Part shown: piece after piece, positions 36,190 through 42,614 of the stretch
Layout: each line of letters starts with the position of its first letter
Numbering within the stretch: position 1 is the first letter of the stretch
DNA from: an uncultured Chloroflexia bacterium
Lineage (GTDB): Bacteria > Chloroflexota > Limnocylindria > Limnocylindrales > CSP1-4
Length of the DNA: 64,000 nucleotides
Direction of reading: 5' to 3'
Assembly (NCBI GenBank): GCA_963712745.1
Contig: CAVQJC010000020.1
Location: forward strand, 480,001-544,000
The notes under the pieces: model-generated
What the model was told of the DNA's origin: nothing
Databases searched by the model: none
The model's input: the letters and a program-made list of their open reading frames with translations, nothing else
Position numbers and translations under genes: made by a program

Positions 36190-37470
36190 TCAACCCGGTT
36201 CGCGGCGCGAACGGGAGACGCGCACCGACCCGCGGTCGACGACGATCTCGGCCGGCATGGGATGCGAGAGGAAGAGTGGCATGGACTCGCTGTAGCCGTA
36301 GGCGCCGGCGTCGAGCACCGCGAAGAGGTCGCCGGCCCGCGGTGCGGGTGCGCGCAGGTCGGAGGCGAGGATGTCGATACCGGTGCACAGCGGGCCGACC
36401 AGATCGACCCGGGCATCCGAAGAGCGCTCAGCTGCCGAACCCACCGGCAGCACGCGGTGATCCTGGCCCACCAGGCGCGGGCGCAACAGATGGTGGATAC
36501 CGCCGTCACTGACGGCCACCGAGCGGCCTCCCCGCACCTTGGTCCGAACGACACGGCAGAGATAGACCCCGGCCGGCGCGGCCAACCAACGGCCCGGCTC
36601 CAGCAGCAGCCGCGCCCCGCGAAGCGCCGGCCGCGTGGACCACGTATCCAACTCCCGGCCGATCCCCTCCCCCAGCGCAGCGAGGTCGAGGTCTGCCTCC
36701 CCGGCGGCATACGGAACGCCCAGCCCGCCCCCCGCGTCGAGCAGGGTCAGCTCCAGCCCGTGCCGCTCGGCGATGCGCTCGGTCCGCCGGGCCAGGTCGG
36801 CTACGCCCTCCACGAGCACGGCCGCCTCAAGCACGTTGGAGGCACCGAAGGCATGGAAGCCGCGCAGCACGAACGGCCCCTCGGGGGCGAGCGCGCCGGC
36901 TGCACGGAGCCGAGTGACCGCGGCGTCGGCCTCGTCGTCGGTAAGCCCGAACTTGACGTTGCCCGGGGCGCTGATGATGGGAAGTCCCTCGGCCTCGCCC
37001 TCGGTCGCCAGGCGCAGAGCCAGCCCCTGCCCAGGCTGCGCGCGGCCGGACATGGCCACGACCACGTCGAGCTCGTCGAGCGACTCGATCGTCAGCGCAC
37101 CCACGCCCGCGGTCAGCGCCTCCTCGATCTCCGCGTCGGTCTTGCCCGGGCCGGTGAAGACGACCCGGGCCGGGTCGAAGCCAGCGCGCAGGACCGCGCG
37201 CAGTTCGCCCCCGGAGGCGACGTCGGCACCGAGCCCGGCTGCGGCCAGCGTGCCCAGCACGTCGGGCGAGGAGTTGGCCTTGGTGGCGTAGGCCACCTCG
37301 ACCTCGCCCGGCAAGGCCCTGCGCAAGGCGGCCGCGCGGGAGCGCAACACTTCGGCGTCGTAGACGTACAAGGGGCTGCCGTAGGTGTGGGTGAGCTCGG
37401 CCGGGTCCAGGCCGGCGATGGTGCGCCCGACCTCGATGACGGGCGCAGCTGCCGTCGTCGCCCGACTCAC
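36190..37470 (-). CDS. lysA: Diaminopimelate decarboxylase family (fold-type III PLP)
   Basis: YATKAN PLP Lys, FTGPGK, DAGGG, EPGR, GPLCTGID, GAYG; GTG overlaps the dapD stop; dap operon context. Confidence 0.85.
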   Translation of the reverse strand: MSRATTAAAPVIEVGRTIAGLDPAELTHTYGSPLYVYDAEVLRSRAAALRRALPGEVEVAYATKANSSPDVLGTLAAAGLGADVASGGELRAVLRAGFDPARVVFTGPGKTDAEIEEALTAGVGALTIESLDELDVVVAMSGRAQPGQGLALRLATEGEAEGLPIISAPGNVKFGLTDDEADAAVTRLRAAGALAPEGPFVLRGFHAFGASNVLEAAVLVEGVADLARRTERIAERHGLELTLLDAGGGLGVPYAAGEADLDLAALGEGIGRELDTWSTRPALRGARLLLEPGRWLAAPAGVYLCRVVRTKVRGGRSVAVSDGGIHHLLRPRLVGQDHRVLPVGSAAERSSDARVDLVGPLCTGIDILASDLRAPAPRAGDLFAVLDAGAYGYSESMPLFLSHPMPAEIVVDRGSVRVSRSRREPG

Positions 37471-38399
37471 CGCAGAGCATCCTCCAGGGCCACCCGTGCG
37501 TCCGTGTTCGCGTCGCGGTACTTCACGATGAGCGGCACGGTCACCGAGATGCCCCTCTCCTGCGCCCACGCCGTGGTGGCCGGTCGCGTGCCCGGTATGA
37601 CCACCGCGCCGGACGGCACGACCAGCGGCGCGTCGGGCGTGCCGCGCAGCTCTCGCTCCTCGACCAGGTCGAACAGGCGGCTCTGGCCGGTGAGGATGGT
37701 GCCGGCACCGATGACGGCGCCGCGGCTGACGGTGACGCCCTCGTAGAGGCCTGCCCCACCACCTACGAAAGCGCCGTCCTCGACGATGACCGGCCGGGCG
37801 CCCGCCGGCTCCAGGACGCCGCCGATCTGGACCGCAGCACTGAGGTGGACAGCCTCGCCGACCTGGGCGCAGGAACCGACCAGCACGTGCGAGTCGATCA
37901 TCGTTCCCCGTCCCACCCAAGCGCCGATGTTGGCGTAGGCCGGCGGCATGATGGTCACGCCCGGTTCGAGATGAACGCCGCTGCGCACGGCGGTCCCGCC
38001 GGGGACGACGCGCCAGGGCGCTCCGGCGTCGGTGGCCGACCGAGCCGACGGACTCTCGAGCAGGTCCAGCAGGCCATAGGCCACCTTGTCCCGGGCAGCC
38101 ATGATCGGGCCATCCCGATACTCGCGCATGCCCGGCAGGCGAAAGCCCAGCAGGATGCCGGTCTTGACCCAGGCATCGACGCGCCAGCCTCCGTCGACCG
38201 ACGCGTCGGGAGCAGCCGCGCGCACCTCGCCGGCCTCGAGTGCCGTCACCAGCTCGGCCACCAGCGCGGCCACTTCCTCGAGCAAGGGCACGGCCGGCGC
38301 GCCCCCGGCCTCGGCCCAGGCCGCGTCGGCGGCAAGGACGCGTGCGGCCAGGGACGTCGCGCCGGGGACGGCGGCCTCGGCGGCCAGCTCGGTCGTCAT
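37467..38399 (-). CDS. dapD: Tetrahydrodipicolinate N-succinyltransferase
   Basis: WVKTGILLGFR, hexapeptide repeats, GSCAQVG, IGGVLEP. Confidence 0.93.
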   Translation of the reverse strand: MTTELAAEAAVPGATSLAARVLAADAAWAEAGGAPAVPLLEEVAALVAELVTALEAGEVRAAAPDASVDGGWRVDAWVKTGILLGFRLPGMREYRDGPIMAARDKVAYGLLDLLESPSARSATDAGAPWRVVPGGTAVRSGVHLEPGVTIMPPAYANIGAWVGRGTMIDSHVLVGSCAQVGEAVHLSAAVQIGGVLEPAGARPVIVEDGAFVGGGAGLYEGVTVSRGAVIGAGTILTGQSRLFDLVEERELRGTPDAPLVVPSGAVVIPGTRPATTAWAQERGISVTVPLIVKYRDANTDARVALEDALR

Positions 38400-39322
38400 G
38401 CCGCGGCCACAGCAGCGGTCTCGAGCAGCCCCAGCTCATCGAGCACGCTGCGCAGCCGGGCGCGATTGGCGTCGTCCAGCGGCAGCATCGGCATGCGCAG
38501 GGCGTCGGTGATGAGGCCCATCTCGGCCATGGCCGCCTTCACTGGCGCGGGGCTGGTGGTGATGAAGTTGGCGCGGAAGAGGCCGAGGTAGCGGTAGTGG
38601 ATCGCGCGGGCGGTGTCCATGTCACCGGCGCTGGCCGCCGCGCACAGCTCGACCATCACCTGCGGCACCTCGTTGGAGGCCACCGAGATGACGCCATCGC
38701 CGCCCACGCCCATGATCGGCAGCGTCCAGCTGTCGTCGCCAGACAGCACCGCGAAGCCCTCCGGCCGGTCACGCACGATGGTCATGATCTGCTCCATGTT
38801 GGCCGAGGCCTCCTTCACGGCCACGATGCGCTCGTGCTCGGCCAGGTGCATGAGCGTGTCGGCGCCCACGTTGCCGCCGGTGCGGCCGGGCACGTTGTAG
38901 ACCACCACCGGCAGGCCGCCCTCGTCGGCCACGGCGCGGTAGTGGGCCTCGAGCATGCGCTGGTCTGGCTTGTTGTAGTAGGGCGAGACCACGAGCGCCG
39001 CGTCGGCTCCCACCTCCGCGGCCTGACGGGTGTAGTCGATGGCGTGCTGGGTCACGTTGGACCCGGTGCCGGCGATGACGGGAATGGTGCCGGTCATGCC
39101 ACGGCGCCGCACCGTCTCGACGGTGAGCTCGATGACGCGGCGATCTTCCTCCGTGCTCAAGGTCGGTGATTCGCCGGTCGTGCCCACCGGCACCAGGCCG
39201 TTGATGCCGGCGTCGATCTGGCGTTCGACCATGCGCACGAGGGTGGGCTCGTCGAGCGATCCGTCGGCGTTCATGGGAGTGACGAGGGCGGTGATGGCAC
39301 CGCTGAGGGTCGGAGTCGTCAT
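38396..39322 (-). CDS. dapA: 4-hydroxy-tetrahydrodipicolinate synthase
   Basis: GTTGES, PYYNKP, YNVPGRTG, KEAS, SGDD. Confidence 0.96.
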   Translation of the reverse strand: MTTPTLSGAITALVTPMNADGSLDEPTLVRMVERQIDAGINGLVPVGTTGESPTLSTEEDRRVIELTVETVRRRGMTGTIPVIAGTGSNVTQHAIDYTRQAAEVGADAALVVSPYYNKPDQRMLEAHYRAVADEGGLPVVVYNVPGRTGGNVGADTLMHLAEHERIVAVKEASANMEQIMTIVRDRPEGFAVLSGDDSWTLPIMGVGGDGVISVASNEVPQVMVELCAAASAGDMDTARAIHYRYLGLFRANFITTSPAPVKAAMAEMGLITDALRMPMLPLDDANRARLRSVLDELGLLETAAVAAA

Positions 39323-39343
39323 GTCTGTCGTTCCTTTCGGTCT

Positions 39344-40096
39344 TCAGGCGGTCCGCTCGCGGACCAGGGTCGTGAACTGGGTGATGCCTTGTCGGTCTGG
39401 CTGCTCGAGCAGGGTGTCGGCTGCGAGCAGGGCTCCGGCCACGTAGGCGGAGCGGTCACGTGCCTCGATGCGGACCTGGAGCGCCTCACCCGGGCCATCG
39501 AAGCCCACGGTGTGCATGCCCGGATGGCTGCCGGCGCGCAGGGCCACTACCTCCAGCACGTCTGGATCCGGCGCGCCGCTGCCCGTGGCCAGGCGCGCCT
39601 CGCGCTTCGAGCGGAGGTGAGGTACGAGTCGATCGGCCACCGCCAGGGCGGTGCCCGACGGTCGGTCGGCCTTGGCTGCGCGATGCTGCTCGAAGAGGTA
39701 GGGGTCGTAGTCACTGAAGTTGCCGAACAGTCGGGCGGCGTACTCGGCGATGTCACCGAAGAGGACGGCGCCAAGGCTGAAGGTCGGCGCCACCACGGCC
39801 CGCGCGCCGTTCCCGTCAAGCCGGGCCGCGAGCGCGGCGCCGGTGTCATCAGCGAGGCTCCAGCCGGTGGTACCGATGATGAACGCGCGGCAGCCGGCTG
39901 CCAGGCCAAGATCGATGTGCTCGAGCAAGGTCGAGTGGTGGCTGAACTCGAAGGTGACATCGACCGCTGCCAGGTCGTCGGCGGCCGGGTAGCCGGTCTC
40001 GCGCCCGGCGATCGCGGCGACCTGGTCCCCTCGTTTCTCGAGCGCGCCCGCGATGGCGCTGCCCATGTTGCCAGAGCCGGTGATGAGTGCTCGCAT
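39344..40096 (-). CDS. dapB: 4-hydroxy-tetrahydrodipicolinate reductase
   Basis: GNMG, GTTGW, EQHRAAKADRPSGTA; ATG at 40096 after a GAGGAA RBS. Confidence 0.9.
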   Translation of the reverse strand: MRALITGSGNMGSAIAGALEKRGDQVAAIAGRETGYPAADDLAAVDVTFEFSHHSTLLEHIDLGLAAGCRAFIIGTTGWSLADDTGAALAARLDGNGARAVVAPTFSLGAVLFGDIAEYAARLFGNFSDYDPYLFEQHRAAKADRPSGTALAVADRLVPHLRSKREARLATGSGAPDPDVLEVVALRAGSHPGMHTVGFDGPGEALQVRIEARDRSAYVAGALLAADTLLEQPDRQGITQFTTLVRERTA

Positions 40097-40159
40097 CGTG
40101 CGTATTCCTCGTCGTGGTGTGGTGGTCGTCCGTGACGAGGCCGCCGGGGGCTCCGAGCC

Positions 40160-40200
40160 AAACAAAAAGACCGCAGTCACCCTCGTCGGTGTCTGCGGCC
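40160..40200 (-). terminator. Intrinsic terminator in the dapB 5' leader (attenuator)
   Basis: Minus strand GGCCGCAG-ACACC..GGTGA-CTGCGGTC hairpin followed by TTTTTGTTT. Confidence 0.85.
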
Positions 40201-40251
40201 CTCGGAGCCTTGCCTAGCGGCCCCGAGTCGGTCGTTCCCGAACGAAGCCGT

Positions 40252-40314
40252 CTAGGCCCGTGCCTCCAGGCAGGGCCGCGTGGGCTTCGGCTTGAGAACG
40301 TACTGGTACTGCAT
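40252..40314 (-). CDS. Putative Lys-sensing leader peptide MQYQYVLKPKPTRPCLEARA
   Basis: 20-codon uORF between the promoter and the terminator; AAG codons at positions 8 and 10. Confidence 0.7.
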   Translation of the reverse strand: MQYQYVLKPKPTRPCLEARA

Positions 40315-40324
40315 CCGATGGCGG

Positions 40325-40353
40325 AGTCTGCCGGGTCGGGGCGGCCACGTCAA
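40325..40353 (-). promoter_or_regulatory. Sigma70-type promoter of the dap operon
   Basis: TTGACG-17 nt-CAGACT on the minus strand, 10 nt before the leader ATG. Confidence 0.65.
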
Positions 40354-40397
40354 GTCGGCACCGTGATCCGGTGTTGCGCGGCCGCCCATGGCCGGTC

Positions 40398-41762
40398 TCA
40401 TGCCGCGACCTCGCCCTCCGTGCGCCCCCACCACGCCTCGAACGCATCGAAGCTCGGCGCGATGGGCTCGGGCAGGGTGGCGCTGTCGTCGCCGGCCAGC
40501 ACGTCGAGCGTCTTGAGGCCGTTACCGGTGATGACCAGCACGGTCTCCTCGTGGCGGCGCAGACGACCCTCGTCGATGGCCCGGCGCAACGCGGCCAGGG
40601 TCACACCGCCGGCGGTCTCGGTGAGGATGCCCTCGGTCTCGGCCAGCAGGCGGATGCTGTCGATGGTGGCCTCGTCGGGCACGCCGATGATGGCCGCGTC
40701 GCTCTCGCGTGCCTGGCGGATGGCGTAGCCCCCGTCAGCGGGTGAGCCGATCGACAAGGAGCGCACGATGGTATCGGGCTTCTCCACCGGCCGGACCAGG
40801 TCGGTCCCAGCGGCAAAGGCGTCGGCGATGGGCGCGCAGCCGTTGGCCTGGCCGCCAAAGAAGCGGACCGAAGCTTCGTCCAGCAGGCCCACGTCGACGA
40901 GCTCGCCGAAACCGCGCTGGAGCTTGGTGTACATGGAGCCGGAGGCCAGTGGCGCGAACAATGCATCAGGGGCTCGCCATCCGAGCTGCTGTGCGATCTC
41001 GTACGAGATCGTCTTGGAGCCCTCGGCGTAGTAGGGGCGCAGGTTGACATTGAGCACGGCCCAGCCTTCGAGCTCGTCGGTCAGCTCCAGGCACAGGCGG
41101 TTGACGTCGTCATAGGGGCCGTCGACCCGAACCACGGTGGCGCCCAGGGCGCGCGCCTGGGAGATCTTGGCGGCCTCGAGGTCGGCCGGGATGAACACGA
41201 CCGCGCGCAGGCCGTTGGCGGCAGCCGCGGCAGCGACGGCAGCGGAGAGGTTGCCAGTCGAGGCGCAGGCAAGCGTGTGGTAGCCCCATTGCCTGGCGCG
41301 GGCGGCAGCCACGGCCACCGGTCGGTCCTTGAAGGAGAGCGTGGGGTTGCGCGAATCGTCCTTCACCCACAGCTTGTCCAGCCCCACTCGCGCGGCCAGG
41401 CGGGGGGCATCGGTCAGCGGTGACTGGCCCACGCGCAGCCCGGACGTCGGCAGCTCGGTGACAGGCAGCAGCTCGGCATAGCGCCAGAGGGTCGCCTCAC
41501 GAGCATCGAGCGTCTCGCGGCTGATACGTGCCCGGATGCCCTCCAGGTCGTACACCGGCTCCAGCGGGCCAAAGCAGCGGGTGCACACGAAGACGGGCGC
41601 GTCCGCGGCTTCCCCGCCGCAGGCGCGGCAGCGCAGGCCGGTGAAACCGGGAACGAAGCCTCGCTCGGCCGAGGTCGTGGGCGGGCTCGATGCGGTACCC
41701 GCGGCGGGGGCGTCTTGTATGTCGGCGGTGTCGGACTGCGGGCGGATGGCGATCTGCGTCAT
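40398..41762 (-). CDS. thrC: Threonine synthase family PLP enzyme with N-terminal Zn ribbon
   Basis: CRAC..CTRC, NPTLSFKDR PLP Lys, ASTGN, EGSKT, TGNGLKT; ATG at 41762 after a GAGAGGA RBS. Confidence 0.85.
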   Translation of the reverse strand: MTQIAIRPQSDTADIQDAPAAGTASSPPTTSAERGFVPGFTGLRCRACGGEAADAPVFVCTRCFGPLEPVYDLEGIRARISRETLDAREATLWRYAELLPVTELPTSGLRVGQSPLTDAPRLAARVGLDKLWVKDDSRNPTLSFKDRPVAVAAARARQWGYHTLACASTGNLSAAVAAAAAANGLRAVVFIPADLEAAKISQARALGATVVRVDGPYDDVNRLCLELTDELEGWAVLNVNLRPYYAEGSKTISYEIAQQLGWRAPDALFAPLASGSMYTKLQRGFGELVDVGLLDEASVRFFGGQANGCAPIADAFAAGTDLVRPVEKPDTIVRSLSIGSPADGGYAIRQARESDAAIIGVPDEATIDSIRLLAETEGILTETAGGVTLAALRRAIDEGRLRRHEETVLVITGNGLKTLDVLAGDDSATLPEPIAPSFDAFEAWWGRTEGEVAA

Positions 41763-41811
41763 CAGGGGGATCCTCTCGGGTCGGAGCGGCCTGGCCGGCC
41801 GCAAGTGCTCG

Positions 41812-41855
41812 TGAATCACGAAGGCCGCGACCTTCGCTTCGTTGGTCGCGGCCCC
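41812..41855 (-). terminator. Terminator-like hairpin in the thrC-like 5' leader
   Basis: Perfect 10-bp stem GGCCGCGACC/GGTCGCGGCC followed by a weak U tract TTCGTGATT. Confidence 0.65.
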
Positions 41856-41901
41856 TGGGATCCGGCCTGATGTCGAGCGCTGCGTTCGGGCGCGCCCGGC
41901 C

Positions 41902-41964
41902 TCAGACCCCGACCGATCCCGGCGGGGCCTCGGGCATCGCCATGCGAGTACCGTGCAGCTTCAT
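41902..41964 (-). CDS. Putative Met-sensing leaderless leader peptide MKLHGTRMAMPEAPPGSVGV
   Basis: 20-codon uORF starting 7 nt after a TACCAT -10 box; ATG codons at positions 8 and 10. Confidence 0.65.
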   Translation of the reverse strand: MKLHGTRMAMPEAPPGSVGV

Positions 41965-41971
41965 CGGCCGG

Positions 41972-42001
41972 ATGGTAGACGGGAGACCCGGTAATTGGCA
42001 A
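41972..42001 (-). promoter_or_regulatory. Sigma70-type promoter of the thrC-like gene
   Basis: TTGCCA-18 nt-TACCAT on the minus strand. Confidence 0.7.
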
Positions 42002-42060
42002 CCCCTTCAGTACACATATGCACGATACGGCGGACTACTCACTAGTCCCGTGCTCGTGAC

Positions 42061-42095
42061 TGCATAGTGATGCGCCCCTGCTGTATAGTCACGAG
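42061..42095. promoter_or_regulatory. Tandem ARG boxes over the argR promoter (autoregulation)
   Basis: TGCATAGTGATGCG at 42061 and TGTATAGTCACGAG at 42082, 21 bp apart; the second overlaps a TATAGT -10 box 6 nt before the GTG. Confidence 0.7.
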
Positions 42096-42614
42096 GTGAG
42101 CCCATCGAGTCGACCCGGTTCTTCGCGCGCCCTCAAGCGGGAGCGCCAGCTTCTCATCCGCGAGCTCGTCGCGACCGGCGCGGTGGCCAACCAGCACGAG
42201 CTGGTGGAGCTGCTGGCAGCGCGCGGCTACGAGGTGACCCAGGCGACCGTCAGTCGTGACGTCACCGAGCTGGGCCTGGTCAAGACGACTGCCGACGGCC
42301 GGCACGTCTATTCGGCCCCTGGCGACCTCGGGGGTGCGCCACCGCCCAGCGACGAACGGTTGTGGCGGATCCTGGCCGACTACCCCGTCCGCATCGGGCG
42401 CTCGGGGCTGACGTTGCTGCTAGTGTCGGAGGCCGGCGTGGCCAACGCCATCGGCCAGGCCATCGACGAGTCGACGTTCCACGAACAGGAAGGCACGCTT
42501 GCGGGTGACAACACCATCCTCGTCCTCTTCGCCGACGAAGGCCGCCTCGAGGCGTGGCTGGAGCGCTTCGAGGCGCTTCGCGCTGCCGTGTCGATGAGGG
42601 GATACGCAGGATGA
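42096..42614 (+). CDS. argR: Arginine repressor
   Basis: Q.EL..LL..GYEVTQATVSRD wHTH and GTLAGDNT C-terminal motif. Confidence 0.93.
   Translation: MSPSSRPGSSRALKRERQLLIRELVATGAVANQHELVELLAARGYEVTQATVSRDVTELGLVKTTADGRHVYSAPGDLGGAPPPSDERLWRILADYPVRIGRSGLTLLLVSEAGVANAIGQAIDESTFHEQEGTLAGDNTILVLFADEGRLEAWLERFEALRAAVSMRGYAG

Follow-up and report, generated by a model that had tools for sequence, protein, structure and literature searches.

Leaders with lysine or methionine codons on one RNA scaffold: a probable family of ribosome-mediated attenuators in an uncultured Chloroflexota lineage

In the classical attenuators of Escherichia coli and Salmonella (trpL, hisL, thrL, leuL, and pheL), a short open reading frame (ORF) with codons for the regulated amino acid is combined with alternative hairpins and a terminator. 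T-box elements read tRNA directly via one specifier codon and possess a Stem I and a T-box bulge. The dap/lys genes are usually controlled by L-box riboswitches, and sulfur genes by S-adenosylmethionine (SAM) riboswitches. Here, we analyzed 2 leaders in a 64,000-nucleotide (nt) stretch of DNA (the window) from an uncultured Chloroflexia bacterium, one preceding the lysine (Lys) operon dapB-dapA-dapD-lysA (Lys leader) and the other preceding a thrC-like gene (Met leader, after methionine). We consider it likely that both are ribosome-mediated leader-peptide transcription attenuators of one homologous family, in which, as supported by comparison of related leaders, one scaffold has been retargeted by changing 2 codons.

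The leaders resemble the classical attenuators in combining a short ORF that has cognate codons with predicted alternative hairpins and with an intrinsic terminator placed ahead of the first biosynthetic gene, and their leader hairpin, middle hairpin, and terminator recall the his-type layout of 3 hairpins (A:B, C:D, E:F). They differ in that just 2 or 3 sensing codons are found, upstream of the switching strand; in that the antiterminator would be formed by the 5' arm of the first hairpin (1:2 / 1:3 / 3:4) and not by 2:3 pairing; and in that the upstream ORF (uORF) lacks a Shine-Dalgarno sequence, appears to start at the 5' end of the RNA, and matches no leader family of Rfam. With T-boxes they share a conserved scaffold retargeted by codon change and, as predicted output, a choice between terminator and antiterminator, whereas their codons lie in a conserved reading frame and no T-box model matches them. 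With the L-box (RF00168) and SAM riboswitches they share the pathways served (dap/lys and methionine/sulfur, respectively) and premature termination as predicted output, and neither riboswitch has a match in the window.

Searches with Rfam 15 gave no match at the gathering score in the whole window, only chance-level matches at E ≤ 10 in the region 40000-42150, and no match at E ≤ 0.1 in 14 related loci, so that the absence of a known riboswitch, noted in the initial annotation, holds for the leaders and their relatives. The lysine riboswitch RF00168 also had no match elsewhere in the genome, which is 4.2 Mb in size and 84.6% complete. The SAM-I riboswitch (RF00162), in turn, occurs 3 times above the Rfam cut-off in the same genome (G000; C8:15064-15181, C4:291119-291216, and C1:137493-137593), indicating that the Met leader would work beside SAM sensing and not replace it. 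Downstream of one of these riboswitches, at a distance of about 350 nt, is an extracytoplasmic function (ECF) sigma factor.

In full-text literature searches, we encountered neither a Lys nor a Met leader-peptide attenuator of this kind, nor attenuation sensing Lys, Met, and cysteine (Cys) as proposed below. Chloroflexi are named in PMC4833913 only as a group with too few genomes. In the available part of Seliverstov et al. 2005 (PMC1262725), no conserved RNA structure is described before the lysine and methionine operons of the Actinobacteria examined. The trp, ilvB, and leuS attenuators covered in that part are, like the leaders studied here, of high GC content and have conserved GGCC triples common to antiterminator and terminator (noted there for trp), and Cys-codon leader peptides precede actinobacterial cys operons, much as Cys-rich forms precede sulfur genes here, theirs without terminators; those systems are actinobacterial, whereas the present lineage is labelled Chloroflexota. 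The mycobacterial poly-Cys ORFs, as described in the available part of 10.1101/834739, are likewise leaderless first-cistron ORFs acting as amino-acid-responsive attenuators of the operon behind, and, unlike the present uORFs, carry runs of Cys codons; this comparison is by description only.

Both leaders and their genes are on the minus strand. The initial annotation had described the leaders as built alike, with promoter, 20-codon uORF, hairpin, and terminator, and all these parts could be read in the sequence at the places given for them. In the Lys leader, they are as follows (percentages of pairing refer to the genus sample introduced below; hp1, hairpin 1).

40348..40353, minus strand: -35 box TTGACG, read in the sequence
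40325..40330, minus strand: -10 box CAGACT, 17 nt from the -35 box and 10 nt from the ATG
40252..40314, minus strand: Lys uORF of 20 codons plus TAG, peptide MQYQYVLKPKPTRPCLEARA, upstream of dapB in 13/13 genus loci
40285..40293, minus strand: candidate sensing triplet AAG CCG AAG, codons 8-10, with AAG at 40293-40291 and 40287-40285
40283..40289, minus strand: 5' strand of helix P0, CGAAGCC, overlapping the sensing codons; partner 40243-40249
40243..40249, minus strand: 3' strand of P0, GGCTTCG, right behind the uORF stop; partner 40283-40289
40255..40277, minus strand: hp1, the putative anti-antiterminator hairpin, GGCCCTGCC / GGCACGGGCC, abutting the TAG stop; 97% paired
40272..40279, minus strand: predicted antiterminator 5' strand GCGGCCCT, sharing bases with the 5' arm of hp1; partner 40195-40202
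40195..40202, minus strand: predicted antiterminator 3' strand AGGGCCGC, extending into the base of the terminator 5' arm; partner 40272-40279
40158..40200, minus strand: terminator, stem 40200-40188 / 40181-40169, followed by TTTTTGTTTGG; the dapB ATG is at 40096

The corresponding parts of the Met leader are given below.

41996..42001, minus strand: -35 box TTGCCA, read in the sequence and found by a consensus scan
41972..41977, minus strand: -10 box TACCAT, with an 18-nt spacer, 7 nt to the ATG, and 9/12 matches to the consensus
41902..41964, minus strand: Met uORF of 20 codons plus TGA, peptide MKLHGTRMAMPEAPPGSVGV, present in 22/22 genus loci
41935..41943, minus strand: candidate sensing triplet ATG GCG ATG, codons 8-10, with ATG at 41943-41941 and 41937-41935
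41905..41929, minus strand: hp1, GGCCCCGCC / GGTCGGGGTC; 98% paired
41915..41929, minus strand: predicted antiterminator 5' strand GGCCCCGCCGGGATC, comprising the 5' arm and loop of hp1; partner 41850-41862
41900..41908, minus strand: 5' strand of helix P2, consisting of the end of hp1, the TGA stop, and the next bases; partner 41864-41872
41850..41872, minus strand: 3' strand of P2 (41864-41872), together with the predicted antiterminator 3' strand (41850-41862), which shares 4 bases with the start of the terminator 5' arm
41811..41853, minus strand: terminator GGCCGCGACC, 11-nt loop, GGTCGCGGCC, and tail TTCGTGATTCAC; stem 41853-41823; the ATG of the thrC-like gene is at 41762

Conservation within the genus was assessed by collecting the thrC-like locus from 22 further genomes, yielding 22 loci with upstream sequence and 13 loci that include dapB. 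The Met uORF is present at all 22 of the former, with Met at positions 8 and 10 in 21/22 and a length of exactly 20 codons in 20/22; the deviations are a single Ile-Ser-Met, a stop after codon 11 in one locus, and a GTG start with 19 codons in another. The Lys uORF is found at each of the 13 dapB loci and invariably has Lys at the first and third positions of the triplet (KPK in 10, KKK in 2, and KRK in 1); it measures 20 codons in 12/13 and 23 in the remaining one, owing to a 9-nt in-frame insertion before the Lys codons. The candidate sensing codons proposed earlier are thus retained in both leaders, whereas 2 other features put forward with them are not: the GAACG motif near the apex of the middle hairpin varies among relatives, and the shared Pro codons are not conserved, with Pro 11 replaced by Leu or Arg in other genera. 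The N-terminal codons are variable, whereas the RNA from the sensing codons through the terminator is almost invariant in the genus.

Promoter elements, and how far they stand from the start codon, are likewise conserved. The Met promoter was the sole promoter-like match of the consensus scan in 39900-42300 (shuffle mean, 0.2); the pattern TTGnnn, 17-19 nt, nAnnnT, and 6-9 nt to the start codon recurs in 16/21 genus Met loci, and in the other 5/21 a TACACT box stands 7-9 nt ahead of the start codon. At the Lys loci, TTGAC(G/A), 17-18 nt, and CAnnnT were found in 12/13, and the -10 box stands 9-10 nt from the ATG in 12/13. With no Shine-Dalgarno sequence at either uORF, these distances suggest that the Met uORF is leaderless and that the Lys transcript has a 5' untranslated region of about 3-5 nt.

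To examine a broader set of leaders, we relied on 2 covariance models, R1, built from the joint alignment of Met and Lys leaders, and R2, based on 95 aligned matches. At every R1 site fetched, the uORF was read together with the first gene behind it, and after removal of duplicates, of 3 matches without a uORF, and of L046 (from the unpublished genome G120), 116 distinct leaders were counted, as follows.

Leaders with Lys codons (n = 58): dapB in 57; contig too short in 1
Leaders with Met-x-Met (n = 51): metY (O-acetylhomoserine sulfhydrylase) in 22; thrC-like gene in 24; OsmC-like gene in 3; unknown gene in 2
Cys-rich leaders or leaders shifted in the alignment (n = 7): sulfite/nitrite-reductase-like gene in 2; cystine-like binding protein in 1; others in 4
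The 4 others: rhodanese/3-mercaptopyruvate sulfurtransferase in 1; an ORF that looks like a beta-carbonic anhydrase in 1; metY in 1 and a thrC-like gene in 1, behind the shifted M-R-M and I-S-M leaders

There were no cross-overs: Lys leaders never precede sulfur or methionine genes, and Met leaders never precede dapB. No specificity beyond Lys, Met, and Cys was found among the R1 and R2 matches. The Cys-rich variants of the scaffold (L071, L075, L081, L083, and L084; e.g., MCRC, MCPC, and CVCMC) have sulfur-related genes downstream, the cystine-like protein being an ABC (ATP-binding cassette) transporter binding protein, and, as read from these sequences, the family is wider than 2 amino acids and includes Cys-rich members. 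In other genera, the N-terminal half of the Met peptides is conserved as (M/V)(N/T/S)HT(C/T)VSW before Met-Cys-Met, and because these uORFs carry 1-2 Cys codons in addition to Met, they may sense both sulfur amino acids.

Several properties of the leaders bear on whether the codons are decoded by a ribosome. An open ATG or GTG within 48 nt upstream is found in the sensing frame in 113/115 leaders, compared with 21 and 8 in the other 2 frames, and an in-frame stop follows 39-60 nt past the codon preceding the sensing triplet in 113/116. Lack of uORF conservation in relatives, named initially as an outcome that would refute the proposal, was thus not observed. In the sensing triplet, the outer 2 codons are fixed and the middle one varies in codon register (P, K, S, A, Q, and R in Lys leaders; A, C, Q, S, F, R, and V in Met leaders), and the Cys of Met-Cys-Met is maintained through TGT/TGC changes. 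These patterns fit decoding by a ribosome and not a single specifier codon or a ligand pocket.

A T-box-like RNA that binds uncharged tRNA, with AAG, AUG, or UGY serving as specifier codon for the anticodon and no ribosome involved, would account just as well for the match of codon and pathway; moreover, in most genera a UGG stands behind the codons, which we take to recall the UGGN of the T-box bulge. We regard such an RNA as extremely unlikely, given that neither a T-box nor any other Rfam family was matched even at the permissive thresholds given above, that start codons are concentrated in the sensing frame and joined to an in-frame stop, and that 2 or 3 identical codons are present instead of one. 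Furthermore, the promoter places the start codon at the 5' end of the RNA, only about 150 nt separate the uORF start from the terminator, and the alignments contain no Stem-I-like domain.

The kinship of the 2 leaders was apparent from several comparisons. A sequence profile of the Met leaders (nhmmer) matches the Lys leader over nearly its whole length (E 0.018), the leaders are almost equal in length, and the joint alignment of 21 Met and 13 Lys leaders has a mean column identity of 66% from the sensing codons to the terminator tail. Two pairs of the terminator stem are swapped between them, G-C/A-T in one and A-T/G-C in the other. In a tree calculated without the sensing-codon columns, the Lys label needs only one change (support 73) and the Cys-rich forms fall among the Met forms, with most branches lacking resolution. 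On these sequence comparisons, the Lys and Met leaders are sister copies belonging to one homologous family. The full-length alignment, a single covariance model recovering both types, and the absence of codon-pathway cross-overs, together with ATG and AAG being one base apart, agree with the initial proposal of one scaffold retargeted by codon change.

In the genome of the window, R1 found these 2 sites only (E 1e-28 and 1e-23; next match, E 0.1): the scan for further copies recommended initially did recover the Lys and Met leaders and yielded no third one. Weaker matches of nhmmer, R1, and R2 in this genome were rejected, those inspected all lying inside coding frames, and an R2 scan of 5 genomes added no new strong member. 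Within the same taxonomic family, R1 matches occur in 79/121 genomes and 37/49 genera, often 2 to 4 per genome. Counts across families of the class were 31/44 genomes for f1, 0/6 for f2 (small genomes of 1.1 Mb), 1/49 for f3, 7/50 for f4, and 0/1 for f5, making f4 the second family of the class with the element; the single f3 match (L126) was dropped, along with L098 and L125, for want of a uORF. The unpublished genomes G120 and G218 enter only the tally of 121 genomes and the class-level tally, and L046 was left out of the alignments, model R2, and later counts. A permissive scan with a degenerate pattern (at least 119 stretches) is not a map of distribution, and R1 accepted 4 of 80 loci from it, all in metagenome-assembled genomes labelled “uncultured Chloroflexia bacterium” or “Chloroflexi bacterium.”

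The RNA structure was evaluated in the genus alignments and in alignment A4, which comprises 28 Met leaders of other genera. Folding showed both leaders to be more stable than shuffled sequences (z -4.2 and -3.3). As noted initially, the segment 3' of the sensing codons is complementary to the terminator 5' arm in both leaders; the complementarity spans 8-13 bp overlapping that arm, is paired in 94-99% of cells in the genus, and is almost invariant. Within the genus, all helices are 69-100% paired in sequences that hardly vary. The Lys antiterminator is paired in 99% of cells and invariant, and the Lys terminator is 98% paired with 2 pairs changed on both sides; the Met antiterminator is 94% paired with 2 pairs changed on both sides, the Met terminator stem is 100% paired, and P2 of the Met leaders is 98% and 69% paired. 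The Lys P0 is paired in 89% of cells with no covariation among the 13 genus sequences. Lys hp1 belongs to the minimum-free-energy fold, and in a transcript cut before the terminator 3' arm, 40195-40202 is the minimum-free-energy partner of 40272-40279.

In A4, pairing of the terminator stands at 96%, and 4 of its pairs are changed on both sides. P2, in which the segment just 5' of the terminator pairs with the end of hp1, the stop codon, and the bases that follow, reaches 85% and 78% pairing and has 7 pairs changed on both sides; counted together with the antiterminator, 26 cells are changed on both sides, a value reached by 0/500 shuffles. The predicted antiterminator itself, formed by the hp1 5' arm and the base of the terminator 5' arm, is 99.2% paired and never varies; hp1 is 93% paired, and the middle hairpin 95% and 69%. 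The expectation that the helices covary is thus borne out for the terminator and P2 and not for hp1 and the antiterminator, which are nearly invariant. For 25 Lys leaders of the KKK type, RNAalifold extends hp1 downward by the P0 helix, which contains the last of the Lys codons and runs as far as the stop codon. The stop codon is located at the 3' base of hp1, or 9-12 nt past it, in all leaders. A classical 2:3 antiterminator, pairing the hp1 3' arm with the terminator 5' arm, was considered and rejected as weak (z -0.7; 2% of leaders below -2). The layout departs from the trp scheme, since the 5' arm of the first hairpin serves as the predicted antiterminator strand, with the sensing codons 8-16 nt upstream of that strand; accordingly, a 1:2 / 2:3 / 3:4 topology with codons inside region 1 was not found.

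The strength of this conservation could point to a different kind of regulator, namely, a riboswitch for a metabolite (lysine, or SAM/methionine) or a leader bound by a protein such as a repressor, in which the open frame would be incidental. The RNA past the codons is far more conserved than the N-terminal codons, the terminator stems of the genus are almost invariant, and such conservation exceeds what a plain attenuator seems to need. Yet the Lys and Met leaders share the scaffold and differ chiefly at 2 codons, and 3 specificities on one fold are hard to reconcile with a ligand pocket; in addition, no Rfam family is matched, and the middle sensing codon changes freely between neighbors fixed in codon register. 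A metabolite- or protein-binding leader is, in our estimate, very improbable.

Two side observations concern the surroundings of the terminators. At 40149-40209, GGCTCCGAG, just 5' of the Lys terminator, can pair with CTCGGAGCC, just 3' of the U-tract; the pairing, with 2 pairs changed on both sides, is shared by most relatives in the genus and is possible only in read-through RNA. In Met leaders of other genera (e.g., L118:1493-1670 and L100:124-306), a conserved UUUCCUCCG directly 3' of the terminator U-tract looks like an anti-Shine-Dalgarno sequence, and hp1 has a conserved GGAGGA; together, these may constitute a second, translational layer of control. No Rfam family matched the 90-190 nt between terminator and metY.

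Taken as ribosome-mediated attenuation, these features suggest the following mechanism, of which we are highly confident as to the general form and moderately confident as to the detailed order of events. The transcript would begin at the uORF start codon or a few bases before it, leaving the uORF leaderless or nearly so. In the default off state, a leader hairpin composed of P0 and hp1 and ending at the stop, the middle hairpin, and the intrinsic terminator would keep the operon off, the 5' strand of P0 carrying the sensing codons. In the on state, the 5' arm of hp1 (GCGGCCCY) would pair with the base of the terminator 5' arm (RGGGCCGC) as antiterminator, braced by P2, in which the stop-codon region pairs with the segment just 5' of the terminator. 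When charged Lys-tRNA or Met-tRNA is ample, the ribosome would reach the stop and depart, allowing the leader hairpin to close and the terminator to form; being local, the leader hairpin would form first and trap the off state kinetically. When charged tRNA is scarce, the ribosome would wait with the first sensing codon in its A site, covering P0 and leaving the antiterminator strand free, so that the weakened leader hairpin would lose to P2 plus antiterminator and RNA polymerase would continue into dapB-dapA-dapD-lysA or the thrC-like gene. In this scheme, the transcription start, uORF translation, the switch's direction and kinetics, and the amino-acid response are all inferred.

The energetics of this switch were calculated for the 116 leaders by equilibrium folding, with ribosome masks, of the transcript cut before the terminator 3' arm. 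When the first sensing codon plus 12 nt is masked, sequestering the terminator 5' arm becomes more favorable, its gain going from -9.5 to -12.8 kcal/mol; the shift toward sequestering is seen in 77% of the leaders and amounts to about 5 kcal/mol for Lys leaders. Shuffling the same 15 nt gives -11.1 kcal/mol, with roughly half of the shift lost, indicating that the shift is partly sequence-specific. Duplex z-scores against shuffles are unimpressive for every helix in this GC-rich RNA.

A number of results weigh against the proposed attenuation. Only 2 sensing codons are present, and they lie 8-16 nt upstream of the antiterminator strand, outside “region 1.” In the Met leaders of other genera, P0 reaches only 63% pairing, its duplex energies are no better than those of shuffles (z -0.6), and hp1 and the antiterminator lack support from covariation because they are nearly invariant. 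When the mask is moved to the third sensing codon, it partly overlaps the antiterminator strand and lowers the gain to -7.1 kcal/mol, compared with -9.5 kcal/mol. The full-length fold keeps 7-10 of 10 terminator pairs under every mask (5 Met leaders), and the truncated transcript favors the antiterminator in all states, so that control would have to be kinetic. The Lys leader has a good U-tract, whereas the tail of the Met terminator in the window is U-poor; a terminator scan of the region detected neither terminator, owing to an internal mismatch in one stem and the U-poor tail of the other. In one metatranscriptome-library run, identical contigs cover 39954-40207 (from the Lys terminator into dapB) and 41759-42065 (the whole Met leader into the start of the thrC-like gene), the latter reaching ~100 nt upstream of the predicted transcription start; these contigs are uninformative because they show neither strand nor ends and DNA may have been present. 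Finally, the Met uORF at L011:2877-3045 has a TAG right behind codon 11 (MAPHVDHMAMR), where its nearest relatives have TGG, with the remainder of the leader intact; this is either a recent defect or a test of the model provided by nature.

Some of these points could equally be taken to mean that the uORFs are translated with the opposite outcome, stalling at the sensing codons favoring termination, or that a ribosome at the stop codon measures the rate of translation or release. The antiterminator strand would be partly or wholly hidden under a ribosome standing at the second or third sensing codon, and at the third codon the predicted advantage of the antiterminator is indeed lowered; a ribosome at the stop codon would leave that strand free while covering its partner in the hairpin, and the position of the stop codon relative to the 3' base of hp1 is constant within the limits given above. 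Shutting off dap, metY, or sulfite-reductase-like genes upon shortage of their own product makes no physiological sense, however, and a stall at the first codon shifts the balance in the expected direction in most leaders, as computed above. The perfect match of codon and pathway further argues for specific amino-acid sensing, and we judge an inverse or stop-codon-based switch to be decidedly unlikely.

A more specific version of the attenuator model, which we offer tentatively as possible, regards the switch as similar to the expression platform of a riboswitch: hp1 would be an anti-antiterminator hairpin whose 5' arm acts as the antiterminator, and the waiting ribosome would take the place of the ligand, melting only the base of the hairpin, which carries the sensing codons. 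Retargeting among Lys, Met, and Cys by point changes in 2 codons would then be a ribosomal counterpart of specifier swapping in T-boxes, and the element would be a programmable sensor of amino-acid supply.

The genes associated with the leaders and the neighboring argR are listed below.

40398..41762, minus strand: thrC-like gene, 454 amino acids, NCBIfam TIGR00260 thrC, 253.6 bits, over the cut-off
39344-40096, minus strand: dapB, NCBIfam 97.6 bits, below the curated cut-off of 122
38396-39322, minus strand: dapA, NCBIfam score over the curated cut-off
37467-38399, minus strand: dapD, NCBIfam score over the curated cut-off
36190 to about 37470, minus strand: lysA, last in the operon order dapB-dapA-dapD-lysA (36190..40096)
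From 42096: argR, in the direction opposite to the minus-strand leaders, thrC-like gene, and dap genes

The thrC-like gene and dapB are separated by a gap of 300 nt. ORFs of 77 and 60 amino acids overlapping the Lys leader were set aside as chance frames, the former having no family match. Between the promoter of the Met leader and argR, at 42005-42100, there is an imperfect inverted repeat, GTGACTATACAG ... CTATGCAGTCAC, and a TGCATA motif precedes the -35 box of the Met leader, with TGCATA-like motifs at the same position in relatives. These may be candidate ArgR operator half-sites for the divergent argR, presumably resembling ARG boxes.

The genome encodes 2 other thrC paralogs, with 35-38% identity to the thrC-like protein. 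It also contains a metY-like gene (C6:136173-137391), 53% identical to the metY of L053, without a leader of this family; this gene is in 2 pieces in different frames, which may reflect a frameshift or an assembly error. MetM-type homocysteine synthase works with the sulfur carrier MetO. Because the Met-type leader precedes metY in other genera and the thrC-like gene here, a MetM-like role of the latter in methionine synthesis is suggested by context, the NCBIfam score pointing to thrC. MetM of Streptomyces is described, in the available parts of PMC13759103 and PMC12172450, as a ThrC homolog that makes homocysteine from O-phosphohomoserine.

Leader-peptide attenuation is textbook knowledge, but for lysine and methionine biosynthesis we found no report of it, and these pathways are regarded as riboswitch territory. 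The family would represent a natural swap of specificity, with one scaffold carrying Lys, Met, or Cys codons before the matching pathway, and exchanging the 2 codons between the leaders of the window should exchange their specificity. Its unusual geometry, combining a nearly leaderless uORF, 2 sensing codons located upstream, and a predicted antiterminator made from the 5' arm of the first hairpin, probes what the classical model requires. If the riboswitch-like version is true, these leaders would achieve with a ribosome what T-boxes achieve by exchanging specifiers, and would offer ready-made, programmable sensors for the supply of amino acids. For the organisms themselves, the family marks lysine and sulfur amino-acid regulons in a widespread uncultured lineage labelled Chloroflexota, and the leader gives a regulatory hint that the thrC-like gene may work in methionine synthesis.

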